DNA of 63,110 nucleotides, filler included, from Rhabdomonas costata (GCA_019059605.1; 53 parts of 53 records of this genome joined end to end with filler, not necessarily neighbours in it), one strand, 5' to 3'. Counted from the whole stretch's first letter, positions 2,384-60,724 are shown. The notes: a model not told the origin generated them from the letters alone. Numbers and translations: made by a program.

Positions 2384-3475
2384 GTGTGTTGTGCCCTATT
2401 GACCAGCTGGTGCTCCCTCTGGACCCACCGGTCTCGGATTTGCTGAACGGCGGGTGGTTCATGGGCAACTACTTCCTTTCTCAAGAAACGCCGTCTGTGA
2501 ATGTGGTGGGCCTTCTTGAGATTTCGGACCAGAAAACCTTCCCGCGCTCGGTAGCGGGGCAGCCGATGGACCTCGTGCTTGGCCTTCGCAGCACGGGTGT
2601 CACTCCAGGCTGGGTGACGGTCTCTGTTGTTGCAAACCAATATTTCCAAAACGGGCAGTTGTGGTGGAGTCTCGGGGCGTTTAACGGCTCCTCACTGTGC
2701 CCTCTGGACTTTAGCCGACTGTACTTCGTTTGTGAGTTGACTAACGTGCAACTAAACTTCTGGGCGGACACCAACGTGCATTTCTTTTTCACCCCGAACT
2801 CCTACCTCGTGGGCTCAATTGCCCTTCAGTTCGTGCTGGACGCAGATGGATGCAGCAGAGTCACCGCGGACCTGACGCCCCAGGTGACTGTGCTGGGTCT
2901 GTTCTCCTTGAACAGCACCCGTGTCAGCCCCGCCACGCCCGTTGCTGGGCAGCAGTTGCAGGTCATTTTGGGGTTTATCAACGAGGCGGTGTTCTCCGGC
3001 GTCAGCTTCCAAATGATGGCTGCGGAAGCAACGAAGTTTCATTCGTTGGAGATCAGTTCGGGCCCAACTGTTGTCAGGGATATTGTCATTCCAGTGAGCT
3101 ATGTTCTCCCCGGGACGCTCGTTCTGGTCGGAGACAGTCCGACCAACTTTTGGCCTTGCGTCCAAGATGCCAGTGGGGCGGTGTTTTTGTGCAATATTAC
3201 TTCCATTCCTTTCCCCACCGGGCTTCTGACAGATGTCTACCTGTGGTTTACACCCAACATCAGCGTTGTTAACATGTTGACTTTTGTTGGTGCGCAGGTC
3301 ACCTCAACTGGTGGGTACTTCGCTGACCTGACTTGCCCGATTCCTGTCACGCTGTATTCCACCTTGATTCAGGATCCCTCGTTCCTTACGGGAATGAATG
3401 TGAGTGCTGAGGCTGGCGAGCTCCTGAATTTCTCCTTTGCAGTTCGTACCCTCGACGTGAATTCCACCAACCCCC
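2384..3475 (+). CDS. Fragment of a large, probably extracellular protein with tandem ~135-aa beta-sandwich (DUF11/Ig-like) repeats
   Basis: The frame is open across the whole contig. Internal repeat: AGQPMDLVLG..C..FVCELTNV..VHFFFTPN..ADLT versus AGQQLQVILG..C..FLCNITSI..VYLWFTPN..ADLT, with a third unit starting AGELLNFSF. Several N-x-S/T sequons. Confidence 0.7.
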
Positions 3476-4768: not shown

Positions 4769-5860
4769 CGCCCGTGTGCTGATGTACAACCCCGAGCTGG
4801 GCCGCGAGGGCGGGATGGTCCCGCTGTGCACCCCCGAGGAGATGAGCCTGCGCTGTGCCCGCAGCCTGGTCCGGGCCGGGATCCAGCACCTCCACGCCAC
4901 GCCACCCCACGCCTACGTCGCTCTTCCCACGCTGTACCCCGCGGTGAAGCTGACGGACCACATGGGGTGGCCCCTGCCCTCCTCCGCGGTGCCCGCGAAC
5001 CCCTTCCTGGTCCCCCTGTGCCAGGGTGTGGAGGTTCTGGCAGTGTGCCCCTCCTCCAGAACTCCAGAAGAGCTGGAGCTGAAGGCCACTGTGCCTTCGC
5101 AGCTGAAGAGCCAGGCTGACGTCCTGCTGGCGAAGCTTGACGCGGCCTTTCTGAATCTCTCTATTACAGTGGCCTCCAGCAAGCCCCCGCCTCCCTTGGG
5201 GGCACCCGTCGCACCCCCGCCGCCAGTGGAGCAGCCTCCTGGAATGGCTCCCTTGTTGGTTCCCCGAAGCTTTTCCGGGCCAGTGGCCAGCCCTGCTGTA
5301 GGGCCTCCTCCTGTCGGTGGTGGTCCTCCCGGGTTGGGGTTTGGAATCCCCGGGTTTCCACCTCTATCACCACCTATACCCATAAAAGCCCTGCCAGTGA
5401 ACATACCGCAGCCCTCTTTTGGGGTGTCTCCAACACCGACCCCTGCGACAGGAGAGCTTGGCACCGCTGGCACGGAGGCCTACCGGCAGATTCTCATGCT
5501 GGACGTTTGCCAGGCTGAGCTGCAGCTAATGCGGAAGAAGAACTTCCTGCTGCGCCAGCGCGACCTCATCGAAAAGCGCCGGCGGTCCGCCAGGGAGACT
5601 CTCTTGGCCCTTCAAAAGGCCCCTGCGGTTGGGTCGGCACAACTCATCCCGACCTTACCGGCCCCCGAACCCCGTCCCGAGAAGCTCCGCCGCCGCACCA
5701 AGGCCTCCTCCCCAGAGAAGAAGGTCAAGAAGCGGAAGCCTTCCCCTGAACCGGTGAGTGATAGCTCCACCGATGCGTCCCGAAGCCCACGACCAGGCCA
5801 CCGCAACAAGCACCGCTCGTCTACAAAGCGGTCCGCTAAGGGAGGTGACCACCCCCCCAC
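4769..5860 (+). CDS. Uncharacterised protein fragment with a Pro-rich middle, a coiled-coil-like segment and a basic/Ser-rich tail
   Basis: GC-rich frame open across the whole contig; no recognised domain. Confidence 0.55.
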
Positions 5861-6073
5861 NNNNNNNNNNNNNNNNNNNNNNNNNNNNNNNNNNNNNNNN
5901 NNNNTTAATTAATTAANNNNNNNNNNNNNNNNNNNNNNNNNNNNNNNNNNNNNNNNNNNNGTGGGGTGGTAAAAAAAGAAATAATTTATTACATTCAATA
6001 ATAAGTAAATATGGTTATGAGAAAGGTGTTGATTTTTTAAATAATATTATTAGAATGGTTACAAATTTTAATT

Positions 6074-6945
6074 TTCTTTTCGTTTCTTTTGTTATAACAA
6101 TATCTCCAATATGTGCAGATGAACCATTTTGTAAATTAAAATTTGTAACCATTCTAATAATATTATTTAAAAAATCAACACCTTTCTCATAACCATATTT
6201 ACTTATTATTGAATGTAATAAATTATTTCTTTTTTTACCACCAACTGCATCTTTTGCTATAATACCATCTTTTATTTTTCCATTTTCAATAATTAAAGTA
6301 AAATTATCTCTTACTAATTTCAAATTTATATTTTCTGGTATAATATATGATATTAAATCTCTTCCATTTACTGTCTTATTTTTATCAAAATATATATTTT
6401 TCTTTTGTATAGACGCTGCTGATAATAAATTCATTGCTGTTTTATATGATATTTCCATATTACCACGAGACATCAAATATAAACCAATTAAACCATCTTG
6501 GACTACAGATATAATTGGAGAACTAGATGCTGGTGTAATTAATTGATACATTACATTTGTAATATTTTTTAATTCAATTTGTGATTGAATATTTTGAGGG
6601 ACAATCATATTCATTTCATCAACGTCAAAATCTGCATTATATGGTGGTGTTACTGCTATATTTAATCGAAATGTTGCAAGATGTTCATTTCTAATAATTT
6701 TTACAATATGTCCCATCATTGACTGCATGTGTAACGTGGGTTGACGATTAAACAACACAATATCACCGTCTTGTAAATGTCTTTCAACAATATCACCATA
6801 TTTAAGTACAATTGTATGTTTTCCATATCGTAAATCAATGGGCATTTGTTTCCCATTAAAACGTTCAACAGGTATAACGTAATTTGCACCGGGGTATATA
6901 TCTCTTCCGTTTCTTACATGTTGTTCAAGTCGTTTTATATTGTAT
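6074..6945 (-). CDS. DNA-directed RNA polymerase largest subunit (Rpb1-like), internal fragment, probably from a giant virus (Nucleocytoviricota, Mimiviridae-like)
   Basis: Motifs YPGANY, GDIVERHLQDGDIVLFNRQPTLH..SMMGH, TFRLN..VTPPYNADFDVDEMN and VVQDGLIG. Intronless and very AT-rich, unlike the host contigs. The ORF-track ends (6015-6073 and 6950-7049) are fold-back duplications, not real coding sequence. Confidence 0.9.
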
Positions 6946-8872
6946 GATGTTACAATATAAAACGACTTGAACAACATGTAAGAAACGGAAGAGATATATA
7001 CCCCGGTGCAAATTACGTTATACCTGTTGAACGTTTTAATGGAAAACAAAAANNNNNNNNNNNNNNNNNNNNNNNNNNNNNNNNNNNNNNNNNNNNTTAA
7101 TTAATTAANNNNNNNNNNNNNNNNNNNNNNNNNNNNNNNNNNNNNNNNNNNNTTTTGTTTGTGGAATTGTGTCGGTCATGTGCTTCTGGGCGAGGGCCCA
7201 TCCTCCCTTGCTTCCTCGAAATGCGATTCGCCGAAAGGTGCGCGTGCGTGCGTGTGCGTGTACAAGCGATGGTATAGAAGGGCGGTATTGTCCCCCGACC
7301 CCGACCTCGACTCCGAAAGCTCCAGAAGATGAGGTGCGAACCCGGTGCCTCTGCTCTGCGTATAGGAAGTGGGTTTTTCCACCCACCCTCGTCCTACTCA
7401 CCATCCTTTTTTCCCTCCTCGATGCGCGATGTGATGCTGGTGGCGAGCGCTGATGTGACTGTGCTGACACGCCAACGGCATTCGGGTTGGGGGCGAACAC
7501 CCCCCATTCCCCTCCGAGGGGGTGCACAGTGGAGATTGCCACCCAGCTGTGTGTGTGCGTGTGTGCGTGAAGATCTGTGTGGTGTGGTGTTTGCCGCTGT
7601 ATGAGTAATTGCTGCGTGGAAAGCGGAGCTGACCCGGCGCCTTCCGCGTGCCTGCCAAGGGTACGAGGATTGGTACGAGGAGGGCTATGCCGCTCCTGGT
7701 CTGCGGGCTTTCCCCCCTCTCTATTCCCTATTGCAACCCCCAGCTCTGTGTCTGTAGGCTTTTTCTTTGCCCTGTAACTGACCTGAGCCCTTTACCGTCA
7801 AAATGGAAAGAGATGGGTTGAGGGACGTCCCTCCCCGGCTGTTCAGAGGACAGCCCTGTTCTTAGTGTGGTGCTGTGTTGTTTTTTCTTGTTTTGGGTGG
7901 CGGCGGGTAAGCGAGCTGCAGAGTTCCACGACATTCGTGACATAGTGCGACGACATTCGACGTCTTCGGTGCCAGTGGACCCGCAGCCCACCAGGGACTT
8001 TGAACTTGCGTAAACCCTACTTGATTTCCCATGCTGTCCCTGAAGCCGTTGTCCTTCCATCCGCGTACTTCCAACTGCTGGAGCAGCTGTGCTAAGATTC
8101 GGCTTTCCCCTCATGTGCCGTGCAGTGGTGATGGGGCCTTTTCTGGACTCTGTTTATTTTGTCAGGCAGATCTTGTGCTCTTGTCTTTTTTTTTCTTTCT
8201 TCTTGGAGGTGTCCGTCACGATGGCGACAAGATCACCAACAAACNNNNNNNNNNNNNNNNNNNNNNNNNNNNNNNNNNNNNNNNNNNNTTAATTAATTAA
8301 NNNNNNNNNNNNNNNNNNNNNNNNNNNNNNNNNNNNNNNNNNNNTTGTTGTGGTTCTTTGTGTGATGCGAGTGTGCAGTTTTTCATTGTGTAAAAATCTG
8401 TCAAATTCTTGTTTTCTCTGTGCCGACCACTTTGCATGGTGACTCCGGTTGGAACGTGTGTTGGAACGTCATGTCTGTGCTACAAGGGGTGAATTCTGCA
8501 TGTTGACGTTGCGCTATTGTACCCTTTTTTCTTGAGGGACGAGGTGGTTAGCTCTGTCTGTTCATCCTCAGTCTGGGTGGTGACATTTTTCTGGAGAGGC
8601 TGAGATAAGAGCCCGAGCAATCCGGCCGGCATGGGAAGGAAAAAGGGCGGCGACTTCTACGACGACAAAAGCGCTGAAGCAGCACGTGAAAAGACCTCCC
8701 GAGCCGCAACTACCAGTCAGTGGTTGGTTTCTAATGTTTCGTTACCTTCGTCATCAATTCTGTCTGCAGTGGTGCAGGGAAGGGCCAGCAGCCTTTAGTG
8801 CCTCTTGGCCCCCCGCCCTGACTCTCCTTTCTCTCTTACTCCAACGCATCGTCCCTTGCCCTCAAGTAACTA

Positions 8873-9084: not shown

Positions 9085-9540
9085 GTGTGCCACCCACCCA
9101 TACCCACCACCCACACATGCATCAGGCTGGTGTCTGGGGTGTGACACCTCACAAAGGGCACAACTAGGGCGCTGCGCACCGGCGCAAGCGGACAGATACA
9201 TGGACATTTTCCCGTTGCGTTGGCCGCGCATACTAAACCCTCAACTTACTACTCTCAATTCGTTTCGTTTCGGGTACAAAAGTGAGAGGGAGGTTGCTTG
9301 CGCGGTGTGGTTGGTATCATGCACTGTGCGTGCGCTATGCTGGGAAACCCGAAAAGCCGTAGAAAACGCGGCGTGCGTTCCGCTCCGCAGAGATTTTTCT
9401 CCCTACACAAACACAGCGGCACCACCACCACACCCCNNNNNNNNNNNNNNNNNNNNNNNNNNNNNNNNNNNNNNNNNNNNTTAATTAATTAANNNNNNNN
9501 NNNNNNNNNNNNNNNNNNNNNNNNNNNNNNNNNNNNGTTG

Positions 9541-9598
9541 TTTGTGAAGCTTCTTCATTGGTACACGTGCACGTGTACCAATGAAGAAGCTTCACAAA
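9541..9598. repeat. Perfect 58-bp palindrome at a contig start (probable amplification fold-back)
   Basis: TTTGTGAAGCTTCTTCATTGGTACACGTG is followed immediately by its reverse complement. Confidence 0.85.
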
Positions 9599-10855
9599 TA
9601 ATGTACCAATGTGCACTTGTCAGGAAATTTGAGATTTCACCTTCCTACACTGCAAGCCGTCAGTGCAAGGGTGGAGCTGGGAAATCGATCAGAGGGGTTG
9701 CCTTCAGGAAGGATAGCTGGTCTTGTGCAGTTTGGCTTTCTCTTTAGCTGTTCTTTTTTCCGGTGTAGGGTGCCAAGGAGCACCGTCTCAGCGCCCTACA
9801 CTGTATTCTCCACCTCCTGGGCACCTCTCTTCGGCTACCTGTCCAGCAGCCAGCTACTTCCCCGTCGGGGGGACCTCTGACCTCTGCGCTGAGCACTGAC
9901 TCCGCCACAGCCACCTTGGCTTCAACGATGGGCCCACATCCTGTGGAGATCAGGTAACCCACTTTTTCCCTCTACCTAGTTTTTTTTGGCACAGACGCGG
10001 TATGTCCCCTTTCTTTTGCCAAGCGTCCCGGAACATCCATTCATGGATTGATGTGTTCCGGAACATGCACGGTTTTCAGTTTCTGCTCCTTGTGTCACCT
10101 TAGATCGTTGACACCGCCCTCGAGGCTCTTACGGCCAGCTCGATTGGATCCTCCTGAGGTATCTGTGACCTCCGAGTAGGGCTGACGCTTTTCTCCATTC
10201 CGAGTGTGCTGTTCCTGCATGATGTGTGTACGTGTGTCCCTGTGGTTGAAGCACATTCCTTCTTTCGCAATCGCTTTGAGCTAGGAGCCATTCTTCGACT
10301 GACCCAAGCCGACCTTCAAAAGCGCCAACTTCAGCCTTTCTGCAGGCTTTTGGGGCCGTCGCAACCACAATGGATCACGATGCCACTCAGGGAAAACGCA
10401 AAGCTGAAGCTGAGCCAGTGGAAGCCCTGAGTCGGATGCCGCCGCACAGTGCCCCAATTCTTCCGTCCGCTAACGCCACCGTCTCTTTGGACATCAGTGA
10501 AACTTCAGGTGAAGCACCATTCGTAATGCGTGTGGCAGTCAGGCGACGTCCGTCACCGGATCTAATAGCGGAAGCAAAAAGAAGAAGCCCTTTCCTGACC
10601 GACGGCCCAAACGCAATGACAAAACACCNNNNNNNNNNNNNNNNNNNNNNNNNNNNNNNNNNNNNNNNNNNNTTAATTAATTAANNNNNNNNNNNNNNNN
10701 NNNNNNNNNNNNNNNNNNNNNNNNNNNNGATAACGTATAACACCCCCCAAATGCACCAAACCCCTGCAACCGAAACTTTTGCACAACCATTTGACGGCGT
10801 CTCCCAACCTCGTGCTCCTCCTTGCCCGGCTTTTGCATGCCCTGGTGAATCGCAG

Positions 10856-18961: not shown

Positions 18962-19145
18962 CTGCGAGCACCGCNNNNNNNNNNNNNNNNNNNNNNNNNN
19001 NNNNNNNNNNNNNNNNNNTTAATTAATTAANNNNNNNNNNNNNNNNNNNNNNNNNNNNNNNNNNNNNNNNNNNNGTTTTGCGGCTCACTATTTCACAGGT
19101 ATGAACCCCAGAAAGACAAATTGAAGAAGATCATTTCCGAGATAA

Positions 19146-19937
19146 GCAAAGTTCCGCTCATGGAATCTTTGTCAATCTCGGAAATGATCTTCTTCAATTT
19201 GTCTTTCTGGGGTTCATACCTGTGAAATAGTGAGCCACAGGAGACAAGAGAAGCCCTCTTCCACCTCCCTTTATCGTCCCCCAGCTTTTCGGCTTCCAAT
19301 CTACTTCAATTATCCAAATTTACTCGTTGCCATAAGCTTAAGCTTCATTCCTCCTTGCGAATGCAACTCTCTCTGCTGACTGAAAACCCGAAATAAACAT
19401 ACCCCAACGCTCGCAGAGCCACTTTGAGGTCCTTTGCTTCAATGGTACCAACACCTTCAGAATCCAGCAAGTTGAAGGCGGCACGCAAGTCAGCCTCTTG
19501 TTCTTCTGTTAGCTCATTCTGTAGCCTTTCGCTATTCGACGGCTTCGTTGGCTGAAGAAAGGTGTGATGATGAAAAAAAAAGCGTCAAAAAAGGCGAACC
19601 TTGGTGGTTTTCACCAGTGCCAGTACCTTAACTGTGCATAATGATAGATTATGGAGTTTTTTTTGCTGTAGTGCAACAGCACCTGGGTTTCGGCATGAGC
19701 TGAGATAAACCAACAACCGCCTGACAAACCAACAAGCACAATGTACAGAATTCCGGTACAGCAAATTTGTCTTTCTGATCATCCCCCCATGCAATATCGG
19801 TTTTCCACAGTGTGCAAAGGCTTTTCCCCACAAAAGATGGCGCCTCAAAAGGAAACTAATCTTATCGAGAGTTGTCTACTAAAACGGTATGTAGAATGAC
19901 AACACACCTTTTTGGCTGTCTTCGCAGGTTCAGTCAT
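19146..19937 (-). CDS. Centrin (EF-hand protein), 5' part, three exons (19937-19908, 19551-19403, 19219-~19146)
   Basis: [71 protein letters not shown]. Both GT-AG introns keep frame. Truncated by a fold-back at ~19082-19143. Confidence 0.92.
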
Positions 19938-20923
19938 GTTGGGTACCTCAGTCGTCACGCGCACTTGATTTTCCGACTTTGTTCGGCAACTTAATGTGGG
20001 GCCTGTGTTCTCACATTATATTTAAAAAATGAAATTGCTTTAATTTGCTACTTATTAATGAAATTTTTACACGCCTGTTGGAGAGTGCTGGAATTTCTCC
20101 TGAAATCTGTTTTGTGATTTACTTGTTAATTTGTGGTGCTGAGAAGAACCTGTCCACCCCCCACANNNNNNNNNNNNNNNNNNNNNNNNNNNNNNNNNNN
20201 NNNNNNNNNTTAATTAATTAANNNNNNNNNNNNNNNNNNNNNNNNNNNNNNNNNNNNNNNNNNNNGGTGGGGGGGGCGTAGAGGAGAGGCGATTCTGAGC
20301 AATGGATAAGAAACTTCCGCGTGAATCAGCAGAACGTTAATTTCTGCGATCGTAGGATTTTGCTTTTGATCCTCCAGCACTTTGGGCGCCGGGTGCTTGC
20401 GAGATTCCGGAAGCGGTGAATTGGGATGTTCTGCGAGAAAACATGTAATTGAGGATGCCTATTCACTTTTTTTGCATCCCGAAAATTTGACCCCGGGCCT
20501 CGAACCTGCTCCCCGATGTGAACGGGCCCTTTGTCCACCGCATTGGCCTGAACCTGTCTGGGCCCAGGTCCATCCCCCAAGGTTCATATTTCGGCGTGGT
20601 GTAAACGGCAAAATGGCTTCTCTTTTGATGGAACGAGATAGAGCACCAATTTTTCCAGTCGGATATCAATTTTGATCATTTTTGAGAACCTTGAATCTTT
20701 TTTGTTTACCGTGCCTCGCGGGGACCCTGCCCCGCGCGGCGCATCTTCGCCATTCAATAAGCACCAAAAGTCGTTTTTACCTTCTTCAAAACATGTAAAA
20801 CCGGGTAAAAGCAGTGTATGTACGTTCATCACACAGTGAACAGTGTAAAAATGGAGGAATAACTGATGATGAAGCACCTGGAAAAGGTAAAGAGTCAGGT
20901 GGTACCCTGTGAACCGCATGGGT

Positions 20924-25032: not shown

Positions 25033-25108
<76 letters not shown>
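25033..25108 (+). repeat. (GT)38 microsatellite
   Basis: Read directly from the sequence. Confidence 0.97.
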
Positions 25109-39281: not shown

Positions 39282-41765
39282 NNNNNNNNNNNNNNNNNNN
39301 NNNNNNNNNNNNNNNNNNNNNNNNNTTAATTAATTAANNNNNNNNNNNNNNNNNNNNNNNNNNNNNNNNNNNNNNNNNNNNTTTTGGTGGTTACAATGTG
39401 TTTTTTTTTGGTTTTCTTCTAACGGTTTTGTTTTGGGAATCGGAAAAGAGGAGTTTCAACTAACTTTTTACCGAATTAACAAAGTATTTTGTAAAGTAAA
39501 GTACGTATCCATAAACCGGGCCCTGAGCCCAGTACGAGTCCTGCCCAACCACCACCACTGTTTTTCACGTAGCAAATTGCCCAGTTTGCTAGCACAGCAA
39601 GCTTATTTATAAAGTCATTGGTAGTCTTTCGTTCGCAACGGGCCATTTGCAACAGACGTAGGCGGGGAGGGTTCCCCCGAAGCACGTCGGCCAAGTTGTT
39701 GCAACTTTAATTCCCTATTGGCCCTTTAGGCCACTTCCTTTCATCGGGCGTTTCGGGGATTTAAAATGATACCTTCCTGAAAATGTATCTTGCGGCTTCA
39801 TGATCTCATGCTGGATGAAATTCTTTTTGTCTGCGTCAACAAAAAAACCGAAGGTCTTTCATAATCAACTTCCTGAAAAAGTTTGCCGCTGGTGTAAAGA
39901 CTCTCTCTCAATCAGATGCTCCGCGTTGTGGCATGGTGCTCGGAAAACACCTGCTGTGCTTGCAGAATCTTGTGTTAAATTCGCGGCATCGCTTGCAAAG
40001 GAGCGGTCATTGAATGGCGTTAATTCCATTGGTCCGGGTGCCCTTCCTCATGGATAATTGGTCCACCCATTGATAGCCAGTCGCCTTTGGAATCACCCGT
40101 AAAGTGGGAAGTTGTGCGGCACAATCAATCATGACGTGCATGTTCTGTTGTTTTACCAGTCCCCTCAAAAACAAGATAGAAAGAACAAAAATGGCAATGG
40201 GTTACTACGGCCATGCCAACTGTTCTGTTTCAAACGCTGTTTCCGCTCAAAGGGCATAAGTACGACGCTGCGCTTTGTGTTACAACCGCGGCGGCTTGTC
40301 AAACCACTCCTCAACGGCTACCTCGGTTTCTGGTTCCTGGTTTTGATAAACGACGCCTTTACATTAGAAAACCCGGGGATTTATCCGCTTTCCGCGGATT
40401 GTTGAGCGAAGCCATTCCTTGTGGTGGGAAAGTGGGGGAAACCACACAAGCACACACAACACACACACCAACANNNNNNNNNNNNNNNNNNNNNNNNNNN
40501 NNNNNNNNNNNNNNNNNTTAATTAATTAANNNNNNNNNNNNNNNNNNNNNNNNNNNNNNNNNNNNNNNNNNNNGTTTTGGGTTACGAATCGATAAGAAAC
40601 CTCATCCCCCTCCCATCCCCCCCCATACCGGACAGTCCTTGCTGGACCCTGAGACGGTTGCCCGGCTTTTGCCTGCCCTCCGGGAGCTCCTGCAAGGACT
40701 GTCCGGTATGGGGGGGGATGGGAGGGGGATGAGGTTTCTTATCGATTCGTAATCCAAAATCCTTTGTCGTTTCTGGTTCTGCTGTGTGCACTGTCGGGGA
40801 TGGTCACCCAACATCCGCCAGGCCGGCACGGTGGCCTCGCGGCAGAATGTCTTCCAGGTATGAACGGTCTTTGGCAACGAAGGTGGCTGCATCCGACCCC
40901 CACCTGAAGTTGCAGTGGGGACAACAGTGTCCATTGCAAGCGAGTGACGTGGGAAGCAACAAGAAAAAGCAGAGTGCATCTACAGTGGGAAGCAAACGGG
41001 ACCACAAAGGGAACGCTGCGAGCAGTTAAATGGCAGTCCGGCTCCAGTGGATCAGCGAAATTCCTGTCCCACACTCCCGCCGACCCCTGTGAAACAGCAC
41101 CCAAGCCTTCTCGCGAGCAGCGTCGAATCCTTCCACATAGCTTTAACCCCCCAGATGCATGCTCTGCCTTAAAAGATTATGTCCTCCTGACGAGCGGCTT
41201 CTTTTAGGAGGGTGTGGTAATGGAATGGGACAGATGCTGACCAGACTCGGGCCGCTCTGCCCATGGCTGGGGAGGCCGTGGTGTTGCGTGCACGATGTGC
41301 CGCCCTGCATGCGCTGGCCTTCCTCTTCCCCCACCACCACCAGTGCCCCGCTAACTCCACCAGCGCTGCCGTGCTGGCAGCTCTGCAAAGGTCATGTGTG
41401 TGTGCGCGCGCAACACCAGCTAGCAGACATCTCAAGTAGAGAGATTTCCAGAGTATCGAGCCGTAGGCCCCAGTAACAGCCACGTCATCTGGGGAGTAGG
41501 TGACAATAATCTTTTGTGAGCACTGTGATCACTGGTGAAGTAGTGAAAGGGCATTCTCCGTAACGAGGGTGTTCCTGTTATCCCAACATCAGAAGTACAA
41601 AGAGGGTCCAAAGAGAAAGACCCCGCAACACCCCTGTTTTCCAGGCAACCCAGCAAAAAGACCCCNNNNNNNNNNNNNNNNNNNNNNNNNNNNNNNNNNN
41701 NNNNNNNNNTTAATTAATTAANNNNNNNNNNNNNNNNNNNNNNNNNNNNNNNNNNNNNNNNNNNN

Positions 41766-42106
41766 GGGTTTTGTTCAATGTAAAATGTTTGAAAAATATT
41801 TTTTACTTTTTCGATAATTTGTTCCATGACTGGATCTATTTCATGTGTCTGTCTGTTATAAACTGGAAGTACTTCTGTTTTGTTACTTCCAGATGACAAC
41901 GATGAATTATCTGATGAATCAGATGATGTATCAGGTGATGAATCAGTATCAAACGTTGTCTCTTCTTCGACTTTGTTGATTGGAATAATTTTTGTTGTCG
42001 GATAGTATGTCTGTTTTTGTGGTTGTGTTTGTTTAACTGATGGTCGAAATTCAAAATTCAAAGAATCTGTAGTCGTTTTACTGAGTGGTTCGTAAGTGCG
42101 AAACAT
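41766..42106 (-). CDS. Hypothetical protein (5' part), probable giant-virus early gene
   Basis: AT-rich intronless ORF open to the contig edge, with an Asp/Ser-rich stretch; AAAATTGA about 80 nt upstream. Confidence 0.65.
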
Positions 42107-42186
42107 TTTTATTTCTTATTGTTTGAATGTGTGTCTTCGTATGTGTAGACTAATTGTTTATATATATCATGTAACATAATAAATTA

Positions 42187-42194
42187 TCAATTTT
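42187..42194 (-). promoter_or_regulatory. AAAATTGA mimivirus-type early promoter motif (for the minus-strand ORF)
   Basis: Plus strand reads TCAATTTT in a very AT-rich intergenic spacer. Confidence 0.7.
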
Positions 42195-42250
42195 TATTTT
42201 TAAATATAAATAAAATTATTTGTTCTACCATCATAAAAGTCATTAGACAA

Positions 42251-42258
42251 AAAATTGA
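42251..42258 (+). promoter_or_regulatory. AAAATTGA mimivirus-type early promoter motif (for the plus-strand ORF)
   Basis: Exact octamer about 70 nt upstream of the ATG at 42327. Confidence 0.7.
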
Positions 42259-42326
42259 TTTTTTTATCTTTTGTATGTTAAATTAAAATATAATTTATGC
42301 TCTTATTGTAATTGAAGTTATTCACA

Positions 42327-42842
42327 ATGCAATACGCTATTCCGTCTAGTTCCGATTCGAATTTGAGTAATGAACAACAAACTACACAGTGTAGTATATG
42401 TAAATGGATCAACAAACAATATAAATCTATTACACAAAAGAAGAAAGTTCAATCAGAAATTACAGTACAAAACAAACTTACAAATTTATGTAGTTCGTGT
42501 GCATTTACACGATATGCAACAATTACAAACAGTAAAAATTATACAATGGCATCAATGGTTTCACCGAAGCTAACTGAACTATTGTATCAAATGTTAAATG
42601 AACAATACGGTAGTCCGGTAAAAACAAATTTCTGGCTTTCTGGTAAAAGTGAATTTAAACCAACAAAATGTAAACATGTTGTCATCTCAACATCAAATAT
42701 ATGTACATATCTTCAAGATGCTAAGAAGAGAAATCATTTCATTGAACATCTTAAATTGATGCAAACAGAATTTCTAAAACGGAAAACAGAATACATTGGA
42801 ATCTCTGATGATGATATTTCTAGATTAGCAGATATCAATTAG
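42327..42842 (+). CDS. Hypothetical protein with CxxC..CxxC pairs, probable giant-virus early gene
   Basis: Intronless AT-rich ORF of about 170 codons containing CSIC and CSSC. The stop is close to the contig end, so the gene may be truncated. Confidence 0.7.
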   Translation: MQYAIPSSSDSNLSNEQQTTQCSICKWINKQYKSITQKKKVQSEITVQNKLTNLCSSCAFTRYATITNSKNYTMASMVSPKLTELLYQMLNEQYGSPVKTNFWLSGKSEFKPTKCKHVVISTSNICTYLQDAKKRNHFIEHLKLMQTEFLKRKTEYIGISDDDISRLADIN

Positions 42843-42997
42843 ATGACACACCAACACNNNNNNNNNNNNNNNNNNNNNNNNNNNNNNNNNNNNNNNNNNN
42901 NTTAATTAATTAANNNNNNNNNNNNNNNNNNNNNNNNNNNNNNNNNNNNNNNNNNNNGGGGTGTGTGTTCTTCTTCTTATATATATGGATGGTATGG

Positions 42998-58780: not shown

Positions 58781-59938
58781 GACACACAAACATCTTTTTA
58801 CCCTGCGGGCCCGTCCCACGCACCTTCTCACACCCTGTACATAGACAGCCTCAATCAGCTGGGTGTGAGGGTTCATCTTTGCATACGGTGGGCCCTCTGT
58901 CAACATTCCTCTCTCACCTCACCTGTCAGCATCTTCCTCTCCTGCAGCAAGGTAGCGGTAGGGTAGCATGCTTAGTCCACTCATCACCCTAAGAGTGGGC
59001 ATTGTACCTTTCTTACACCCTGGTTGTCAGCATACCGGTCATGTCGGTCTCGGCGACCCCCACTATGGCATACTCTACCATCGGGTGGTAGGGTACATCA
59101 ACGCACACGTAGCGATACTCACACCCGCTACCTTGCCACCTTGGCGTAGGAGTGGCAGCATCACCACAAGCTCCATCCACACCGGGTACGGTGAGACTTC
59201 CCTGCTACCACCAACATCCGATGCTACGGTTGGCATCATCACGTGTGGGCTGGTTCTTGCTCCATGACAGTCAGCGTTGCACCAACGGTAGGCCATATAC
59301 CATCACCATCATCGCTGGATGTGGCTGGGTTGAGCCTTGGCCTGACCTTCTAGCTTCCTCCGGAGGGGTTTACCGGTCGTATCCGTTACGTGGACTAAGC
59401 GACTCCTGCATGGCCTGCTCACAACTAGGGTGTATACCCATAGTGCTACTAGGGGGCATGTGTCAACCAGTGGTAGTAAATAGCCATCGACCACTGGCGC
59501 TATCGTGGAGCACTGTCACCATAGGACTGGTTACCCACTTAGANNNNNNNNNNNNNNNNNNNNNNNNNNNNNNNNNNNNNNNNNNNNTTAATTAATTAAN
59601 NNNNNNNNNNNNNNNNNNNNNNNNNNNNNNNNNNNNNNNNNNNTTGTTGTTGTCATTCCTCACACAGCCCTTCTTTCCTTCTTTCATTCACTTCTTTGTT
59701 TGGTGAGAAACACTCTGGCCTCTGCGCTATCAATGCGCTTATATCTTGGTATCCTCTCGAATGGTTAGCACTGCTGCTCAAGGGTCCGAAGTTTCGCATC
59801 TCAGAACGTCCCTTTGGGTGTGGAGCGAATCTCGCACGTGTGTTGTGAAGAGCTCATTTGTCCTTGACCTGTTTTCGTCTTGCTGTTGGGCGGGACTGCT
59901 CACGTTTGAGCTGGGACGGACGGGGGTATGTATTGCAG

Positions 59939-60724
59939 GTCGGAAAGCGGACTTCCTGTGGATGTACGTGGTTATGCTCTCGGCGATGCTGCTTCTCGGG
60001 GGTGGGGTCCTGGGGATGCGCGTGTTGGGCCGCAGCGTTCTTCTTGCGGTGGTGTGGGTGTGGTGCCGCCACAACCCCACGCAGAACATGAGCATCATGG
60101 GCATATTCACGGTCAGCGCGCTGATGTTCCCTTGGGTATGTGGGCACGCACGTGCGCAGCATAACCTGCTGTCGGTCAGATTCATATCTAGTGACAGCAG
60201 CTCCCGCAGTTCCGCATTCAAATACGTGCCTATACCTCTTGCCTGCAGTGTTTTCGCCCACTTCTGGGCGGAAAGTACTCAAACCAACAACAACAACAAA
60301 AAACAGCACAGCATCAGCAGGTCAACAACCTGCAACATATACGGGACGTTCGATTCAGTTGTGTGGACAACCAAGACTTATGGCGGGCAGGACTAGACGG
60401 AGGAGACAGCAAACGGATAATTGGCAGAGCGCTAAAATACACAAAGCCCACTGCTTTCTTACGGGACCAATTGTATGGAGTGCGAGGCGAAGGAATGAGA
60501 TAATGAGATCGATCCCGTCACCCAATTTGTACACTGAGGATGGTATTCGGTTCTTTTCGTTTTTCAGTGGCCGTTTGTTTTTGGTCGCTTCGTGGCCACA
60601 GGTTCTCCTGGGGCTGCATATGATCATGGGCCAGGGCTACCTCCCCGCCCTAGTGGGGATTGCGTCTGGCCACCTGTATGTCTACCTCACCGACATCCTT
60701 CCCACAACCCACGGGGTGACCCTG
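59939..60724 (+). CDS. Derlin (Der1-like ERAD membrane protein), two exons (59939-60135 and 60602-~60724)
   Basis: GRKADFLWM..VWVWCRHNP..ALMFPW|VLLGLH..LVGIASGHLYVYLTDILP; phase-0 GT-AG intron. Confidence 0.93.

Follow-up and report, generated by a model that had tools for sequence, protein, structure and literature searches.

The contig at positions 41766–42857 is most likely a fragment of an NCLDV-type genome, derived in the likeliest case from a member of the Imitervirales, or otherwise from a satellite. The reading that we prefer, with a probability of about 0.6, is that it represents a scrap of an uncultured, AT-rich NCLDV of the Imitervirales, on which two divergent, lineage-specific orphan genes have a bidirectional early-promoter region in common. 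According to this reading, the scrap of viral DNA would have been co-amplified with the DNA of a eukaryotic cell of ~53% GC. In the course of infection, the virus-encoded RNA polymerase and early transcription factor would recognize each of two AAAAATTGAT elements located between the genes, transcription would start shortly downstream of each element, and both genes would be switched on early.

The features relevant to this reading are given below. All coordinates are counted from the first letter of the window, i.e., of the whole 63-kb stretch of DNA that was analyzed.

5961–7052, minus strand: giant-virus-type RPB1 fragment, domains 2 and 3; no other hallmark gene of the window could link the finding to a virus
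41766–41775, no strand: G/T-only contig end of 10 nt; probably derived from an amplification primer, not from the genome
41768–42106, minus strand: ORF A, with its ATG at 42106; first 113 codons, after which the frame runs off the contig; no relatives detected in the searches described below
41901–41946, minus strand: three 12-nt tandem copies in ORF A, which encode a Ser/Asp-rich acidic low-complexity stretch
42012–42034, no strand: G/T-only run of 23 nt in ORF A (the KQTQPQKQT part); either a low-complexity stretch of natural origin or a join made by the primer
42107–42326, no strand: divergent intergenic spacer, 220 bp, 17.7% GC
42187–42194, minus strand: AAAATTGA in the context AAAAATTGAT, directed towards ORF A, 80 nt before the ATG
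42251–42258, plus strand: AAAATTGA in the context AAAAATTGAT, directed towards ORF B, 68 nt before the ATG
42327–42842, plus strand: ORF B, complete, 171 aa plus stop; no relatives detected in the searches described below
42390–42500, plus strand: C22-x2-C25 ... C55-x2-C58 region of ORF B; candidate four-cysteine metal site
42846–42857, no strand: A/C-only contig end; probably primer-derived, so that genuine sequence extends just 3 nt past the ORF B stop, too little for 3′ signals to be read

An amplified and fragmented assembly

The window consists of 53 contigs of ~1092 bp each, separated by N/TTAATTAATTAA spacers, and does not represent a single locus. Most of the contigs have a GC content of 47–59% (bulk ~53%); only two of the 53 are AT-rich, namely the contig with the RPB1 fragment (26.6% GC) and that with the divergent ORFs (28.7% GC). 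A Pfam family, the Der1-like family of ER-associated degradation, was recognized in one of the 19 longest background ORFs, and neither rRNA nor tRNA genes, nor any other Rfam family, were recovered in Rfam and tRNA scans that covered the full window. The bulk of the window therefore resembles a poorly known eukaryote.

The contig ends carry a recurrent signature. Thus, 32 of the 53 contigs open at the 5′ end with a G/T-only run of at least 7 nt, and 38 close at the 3′ end with an A/C-only run of at least 7 nt, the usual size of these terminal runs being 10–12 nt. We interpret the runs as traces left by an amplification primer of degenerate G/T sequence, which implies that the outer ~10 nt of each contig are probably non-genomic. 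Internal G/T or A/C runs of at least 16 nt are present in 17 of the 53 contigs, compared with ~1.6 expected in random sequence by our own estimate. Furthermore, four of the 53 contigs have fold-back duplications at their ends. One of these is the RPB1 contig, which is folded back at both ends: on its 5′ side, positions 5965–6074 pair with 6133–6242 (110 nt, 100%), and on its 3′ side, positions 6845–6944 pair with 6951–7050 (100 nt, 99%), the unique part of the contig being ~6075–6944. The odd C-terminal residues and the stop of the RPB1 fragment are not genuine biology; they belong to the inverted fold-back copy. The assembly is amplified and highly fragmented, and it contains amplification chimeras.

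Layout of the contig and its reading frames

Without its primer-derived ends, the contig 41766–42857 measures about 1070 bp. A preceding interpretation, made by a model that was given the DNA alone (hereafter, the sequence-only reading), described an AT-rich contig with two divergent ORFs and a 220-bp spacer between them; this description is confirmed by the base composition and by the two frames, of 113 and 171 aa. At the composition of the contig, such open frames are unlikely to arise by chance (probability of 2e-7 for a frame of 176 codons and of 8e-5 for one of 113), and the third codon position has the lowest GC content in both ORF A and ORF B (GC3 of 20%). For these reasons, both ORFs look like real coding sequence.

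It should be considered whether the divergent layout, or ORF A as one gene, is itself a product of amplification, i.e., a chimera of two AT-rich fragments joined through primer-like G/T sequence. The fold-backs and the excess of internal runs described above are in keeping with this explanation, particularly because one of the runs, 42012–42034, is situated in ORF A. If taken as a junction, however, this run leaves the two motifs together with the ATGs and the whole of ORF B on one side, so that a chimera would touch the distal part of ORF A only; moreover, the reading frame of ORF A remains open across it. No long inverted repeat is present in the contig, in which the longest pair measures 28 nt at 71%. 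Finally, the sequence is AT-rich on both sides of the run, yet with only two AT-rich contigs among the 53, host DNA would be the partner in nearly every random join. A chimeric origin is, in our opinion, very improbable.

Two proteins of unrecognized families

The two predicted proteins differ in charge: ORF B encodes a basic product (pI 9.3), and the visible part of the ORF A product is acidic (pI 4.7), with residues 41–80 having a pI of 4.05. Both are hydrophilic and have no membrane segment, in contrast to the products of typical organelle genes. The ORF A product is free of cysteine in its visible part and starts with an acidic Ser/Thr/Asp-rich region that is probably disordered. In ORF B, four cysteines (C22, C25, C55, and C58) form the pattern CxxC-x29-CxxC. 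Because the protein is small and basic and has this pattern, it is most likely a zinc-stabilized nucleic-acid-binding protein, and we infer zinc binding from the spacing of the cysteines. The possible zinc-binding motif of the sequence-only reading thus stands as a cysteine pattern but not as a profile match: the Pfam family Zn_ribbon_3 aligns with ORF B at an E value of 0.65, with 10 bits against a cut-off of 27, which is far below the threshold. For ORF B, single-sequence modeling with AlphaFold2 gave a mean pLDDT of 37, and the model is unusable.

No homologue of ORF B was returned at E ≤0.001 when 1.84 billion representatives, standing for 15 billion proteins from genomes and metagenomes, were scanned in full with HMMER. 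ORF B likewise had no match in IMG/VR (pattern scan), in 50,697 phage records (tblastn), in a 90%-cluster protein database (near lengths), in JGI metagenome contigs, or among PDB sequences (E up to 10); it had no usable match in the ESM Atlas, and its comparison with Pfam gave sub-threshold noise only. For ORF A, there were no matches in Pfam, in IMG/VR, in JGI metagenome contigs, or in the 90%-cluster database ('longer' lengths), and none in PHROGs, where the best E value was 0.27. The searches for ORF A were shallower, and its orphan status is less secure than that of ORF B. As the sequence-only reading had it, these are two unrecognized genes; no family or homologue was found for either in Pfam, IMG/VR, or protein libraries. 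That reading had named a match to an AT-rich cellular organism as evidence that would speak against it, and no cellular match appeared in any search made. It had also proposed a search for giant-virus matches, which found none for ORF A or ORF B. Since there is no hallmark or orthogroup gene on the contig, as judged from Pfam and homology searches of both ORFs, and no homologue of either ORF in the viral collections searched, the viral assignment is indirect. Orphan genes are common in giant viruses.

These observations bear on a different explanation, namely that the contig is AT-rich DNA from outside the NCLDVs (a mitochondrion, an AT-rich bacterium or phage, or prey) and that the octamers arose by chance in a spacer of 18% GC. 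Nothing on the contig is demonstrably viral, and residues 108–158 of ORF B align with phrog_8058, a phage family of PHROGs that has no assigned function, at a borderline E value of 0.0012, a point that leans in the same direction; we do not, however, take this match as evidence of phage origin. Other features of the contig do not fit this explanation. ORF B lacks a homologue among the 1.84 billion representatives and has no tblastn match in the phage records; sigma-70-like sites are not enriched on the contig (9 vs 7.5 ± 3.1), a bacterial terminator scan found no intrinsic terminators on it, and tRNA and rRNA genes are absent according to the Rfam and tRNA scans. The hydrophilic proteins are unlike mitochondrial membrane subunits, and a mimivirus-type RPB1 of similarly low GC (26.6%) is present in the same assembly. 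With the behavior of the motifs, discussed next, also taken into account, we consider an origin outside the NCLDVs quite unlikely.

The motif pair in the spacer

The spacer contains two exact AAAATTGA sites, one per strand, which are placed back to back, each aimed at its own gene. The distance from the start of the motif to the ATG is 76 nt for ORF B and 88 nt for ORF A; counted from the end of the motif, the distances are 68 and 80 nt. The sequence-only reading, which reported one exact AAAATTGA per strand at about 70–80 nt from the ATG, was therefore a fair account. The 10-mer AAAAATTGAT is common to both sites, and both have an A at position −1 and a T at position +8, the same bases that form the majority in the related viruses (66% and 57%, respectively). 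Upstream ATGs, seen in the sequence of both putative leaders, count modestly against the promoter reading.

The contribution of chance was estimated from 20000 dinucleotide-preserving shuffles of the spacer. The share of shuffles with AAAATTGA was 3.3% for the plus strand, 8.3% for the minus strand, and 0.24% for the two strands together, while at least one site was present in 11%. A second background was taken from convergent spacers, which are real AT-rich DNA that should be promoter-free: the 109 convergent spacers of the related viral contigs contain 8 motifs in 22989 bp, both strands counted. The corresponding rate, ~0.04 motif per strand per 220-bp spacer, agrees with the shuffles.

The motif pair in the spacer exceeds chance for the local composition, and the signal fades at the scale of the contig and of the window. 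The whole contig has 2 sites vs 0.46 expected, and at least 2 sites are found in 7.3% of 5000 shuffles; across the whole window, there is no enrichment of AAAATTGA, the 5 observed sites comparing with 3.5 expected and 29 of 100 shuffles reaching 5. For the explanation by AT-rich DNA from outside the NCLDVs, these figures cut both ways: an AT-rich spacer favors matches, as the 11% of shuffles with at least one site indicates, but a motif on both strands is rare in the shuffles (0.24%), and the observed pair is in the correct back-to-back orientation besides.

The RPB1 fragment and motif use in its relatives

RPB1 domains are recognized on the contig 5961–7052 at Pfam E values of 7.5e-42 and 5.3e-25. 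The best matches of the fragment are RPB1 proteins of ~1460–1500 aa, at 59–44% identity, or longer ones with intein domains; the scores are 359 bits for the best match (an RPB1 of ~1465 aa), 264 bits for Hokovirus HKV1, and 192 bits for the best solved eukaryotic Rpb1. A profile of RPB1 proteins applied to IMG/VR gave 597 pattern matches, 554 of which were confirmed as relatives. The sequence-only reading had regarded the polymerase fragment as viral; the Hokovirus HKV1 match and the IMG/VR relatives uphold this view, the fragment being giant-virus-like, and a mimivirus-order virus is therefore present in the assembly. There is no AAAATTGA site on the RPB1 contig, which is all coding and has no intergenic DNA.

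Motif use was assessed in the best 80 of the 554 loci, which amount to 1.27 Mb; ORFs were defined as ATG-started, non-overlapping, and at least 100 aa long. Many of the best 80 of the 554 IMG/VR loci carry the name GVMAG. In this set, AAAATTGA is found within 150 nt upstream in the sense orientation for 101 of 795 ORFs and in the antisense orientation for 46 of 795. The distance from the motif to the ATG is sharply peaked, being 30–49 nt in 70 of 102 sites and at least 60 nt in 13 of 102. Among the 156 divergent spacers of the same best 80 loci, a plus-strand motif is present in 35, a minus-strand motif in 27, and both in 13; the orientation is back to back in all 13 of the latter. When the size of the spacer is restricted to 150–300 bp, both motifs are found in 9 of 25. 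Overall, a paired motif is ~35–55 times likelier in the related viral spacers than in random AT-rich DNA (0.083 vs 0.0015–0.0024).

The closest loci, L001–L003, in which RPB1 is 50% identical to our fragment, have 11 sites for 41 genes, at distances of 45–72 nt. One divergent spacer of L001 has spacings of 72 and 67 nt, vs 80 and 68 nt in the contig 41766–42857. The site at 68 nt falls inside the range of L001–L003 and that at 80 nt just beyond it, which speaks modestly against the promoter reading, and both are above the 30–49 nt mode of the larger set; that these spacings exceed what is typical for most relatives is a point in favor of an origin outside the NCLDVs. The occurrence of the pair in 13 of 156 spacers and the similar spacings in L001 indicate that the back-to-back arrangement is a normal feature of the virus group of the RPB1 fragment. 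The supportive weight that the sequence-only reading placed on the paired geometry is borne out by the same numbers, and we infer that the two motifs are used as promoters and that the genes would be expressed early.

In the 1.27 Mb of the best 80 loci, neither ORF A nor ORF B has a homologue, the best tblastn E value being 0.04. Weak tblastn matches of ORF B inside RPB1 genes, to which this value belongs, were rejected as chance because they are non-collinear, because RPB1 is the gene common to all 80 loci, and because hhalign against the RPB1 profile gives a probability of 0.2%, for ORF B as for ORF A.

Composition and the question of a shared genome

The composition of the two AT-rich contigs makes it plausible that they come from one genome. 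In tetranucleotide frequencies, they are mutual nearest neighbors among the 53 contigs; their GC3 values are 20% (41766–42857) and 16% (RPB1 contig), and the synonymous codon use of the contig ORFs correlates with that of RPB1 at r 0.76, compared with 0.20 for background ORFs. The agreement in tetranucleotides and codons largely restates AT-richness. The composition-normalized dinucleotide distance between the two contigs is 0.205. When an RPB1 piece is set against another 1-kb chunk from its own viral locus, only 10% of 627 distances reach this size; across different viruses, 34% of 358 do, and of the host contigs, 47% are at least as close to the RPB1 fragment. Thus, the tetranucleotide co-binning with 5961–7052 that had been proposed did pair the two contigs, but normalized dinucleotides add nothing to it. 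The distance of the contig to pooled L001–L003 is 0.237, which exceeds that of all 44 of their 1-kb chunks. The contig is short of CC/GG and GC dinucleotides, in part as a consequence of the low Gly and Pro content of its proteins.

The octamer in viruses and in their satellites

The available text of the published reports documents wide use of the octamer. AAAATTGA lies within 150 nt upstream of 45% of mimivirus genes, where it marks early genes, and ahead of 35% of the genes of CroV (PMC5294985); in moumouvirus, it is found at 37.7% of genes (PMC3542560), and in Tupanvirus, it is ~6 times commoner in intergenic than in coding DNA (PMC5829246). The early motif of PgV has a AAAATTGA core (10.1101/2022.07.28.501842), and AaV uses the one-mismatch variant AAAAATGA (PMC5917014). 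Beyond these viruses, AAAATTGA precedes 44% of the genes of pacmanvirus, the octamer has been reported in ASFV too (PMC11788076), and the promoter of the DNA polymerase gene of iridovirus IIV-6 starts with AAAATTGATT (PMC5294985). As far as these accounts extend, the presence of the octamer in pacmanviruses, ASFV, some iridoviruses, and satellites means that it indicates early transcription of the NCLDV type; it is not specific to the Mimiviridae, nor does it distinguish a virus from a satellite. The statement that this octamer is the Mimiviridae early promoter, with which the analysis started, is accordingly correct for mimivirids (PMC5294985) and does not hold in the sense of a specific mark (PMC11788076; 10.1101/2022.07.28.501842; PMC5294985), on the evidence of the text available from these sources.

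The contig might instead be a piece of a giant-virus satellite (a virophage or polinton-like virus, a transpoviron, or a small episome) that borrows the early promoter of its helper; the borrowed promoter would let the helper polymerase read the satellite genes. Satellites of giant viruses are AT-rich and have mostly orphan genes, both of which we count for this explanation, together with the poor fit of the dinucleotide signature to the RPB1 fragment and its relatives. Precedents are found in the accessible parts of two reports: the polinton-like virophage PgVV has a AAAATTGA-core motif upstream of 5 genes (10.1101/2022.07.28.501842), and a pacmanvirus transpoviron and a 2-kb episome carry AAAATTGA ahead of genes of unknown function (PMC11788076). 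Against a satellite, it should be noted that the 1.1 kb include no capsid, packaging ATPase, protease, or helicase gene, and that there is no homologue or similar locus in IMG/VR and none in protein libraries. Moreover, genome size (hundreds of kb vs 7–20 kb) makes a giant virus by far the likelier source of a random 1-kb scrap, unless the satellite is in high copy. We regard a satellite origin as unlikely. A more specific proposal, in which the contig would belong to an unseen small mobile element, transpoviron- or episome-like, that parasitizes an uncultured marine or freshwater mimivirid, takes over its early transcription with two borrowed AAAAATTGAT promoters, and encodes in ORF B a new zinc-binding DNA-binding protein, is decidedly improbable.

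If the reading as a scrap of an Imitervirales NCLDV is true, the contig further suggests that a mimivirus-like virus had infected the amplified cell or been eaten by it. Two orphans driven by early promoters would be added to the great many genes of giant viruses that have no known function, and back-to-back AAAATTGA sites could be used to flag viral scraps that have no recognizable gene. For this virus group, such a promoter, its use in both directions, and the wealth of orphans have all been described before, and no new question is raised.

Comparison with known systems

ORF B is comparable to zinc-ribbon and other four-cysteine small DNA-binding proteins in being small and basic and in having the CxxC-x29-CxxC pattern; it differs from zinc-ribbon proteins in its Zn_ribbon_3 E value (0.65) and in the low confidence of its model (pLDDT 37).

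The contig as a whole differs from PgVV and from the pacmanvirus transpoviron and episome in that its 1.1 kb have no sequence similarity to them and no satellite hallmark gene. It shares with these elements, as they are described in the available text, an AT-rich composition, orphan genes, and AAAATTGA before genes of unknown function.

With regard to transcription, the predicted promoter has spacings (68 and 80 nt) longer than the mode of the fetched relatives (30–49 nt). It resembles the mimivirus-type early promoter of Mimivirus, Megavirus, Moumouvirus, Tupanvirus, CroV, and PgV, as presented in the accessible portions of the literature, in having the exact octamer, in the sense orientation, at most 150 nt before the ATG, and also in the AT-rich spacer and in the back-to-back placement for divergent genes; the A and T that flank the octamer at −1 and +8 agree with the related viruses.

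Among the sequences compared, the Imitervirales GVMAG contigs L001–L003 (GC 26–31%) differ from ours in that neither ORF A nor ORF B has a homologue in them and in that the dinucleotide signature of our contig lies outside the range of their 1-kb chunks. They are like it in being AT-rich and in having a divergent spacer with both motifs, theirs at 72 and 67 nt.

Amplification footprint at the contig ends

The uniform size of the contigs, which is about 1092 bp in all 53 of those in the window, is accompanied by a characteristic base composition at their termini. A start of about 10 nt composed of G and T only is present in 32 of the 53 contigs, and a finish of similar length (about 10 nt) composed of A and C only is present in 38 of 53. 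These G/T starts and A/C finishes were left by a degenerate G/T primer during whole-genome or whole-transcriptome amplification; therefore, the terminal bases should not be taken for genome sequence.

Runs of G/T only or A/C only, 16–52 nt long, also occur internally in 17 of the 53 contigs (for example, at 25057, 14658, 60280, and 13610), far above the expectation for random sequence. Part of these runs are (GT)n/(CA)n microsatellites; the others have a primer-like appearance and may mark chimeric joins.

Fold-back chimeras

The AT-rich contig 5961–7052, which carries the giant-virus-type RPB1 fragment, has at each end a perfect inverted copy of internal sequence:

5965–6074 with 6133–6242, inverted, fold-back pair 1
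6845–6944 with 6951–7050, inverted, fold-back pair 2

This contig is an amplification chimera, and what look like the C-terminal residues and the stop codon of its RPB1 ORF belong to the inverted copy rather than to a true gene end.

Separately, three host-like contigs (9537–10628, 19075–20165, and 40574–41665) repeat their 5′ end as a reverse complement within the same contig; these, too, are fold-back chimeras.

Background ORFs

The bulk organism of the window is apparently a poorly characterised eukaryote. Among the 19 longest background ORFs, only one matched a Pfam family, a Der1-like domain; the other 18, two of which fill their contigs entirely, gave no match:

2386–3474, + strand, ORF of 363 codons filling the whole contig, ~55–65% GC, no Pfam family
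4770–5858, + strand, ORF of 363 codons filling the whole contig, ~55–65% GC, no Pfam family
59707–60393, Der1-like domain

Comparison with RPB1 relatives

In P0003, the protein of contig 5961–7052, the catalytic metal-binding motif at residue 143 reads NADFDVDEMN, while all 11 aligned RPB1 relatives have Gly at this position (NADFDGDEMN). The Val may stem from an error in amplification or sequencing, or it may be a genuine unusual substitution.

Among the IMG/VR giant-virus loci found via RPB1 (L001 and others), the distance from AAAATTGA, the mimivirus-type early-promoter octamer that precedes both ORFs of contig 41766–42857, to the ATG varies by clade of RPB1 relatives: its median is 51 nt for the closest three loci, 44 nt for the ten after them, and 41 nt for the other 67.
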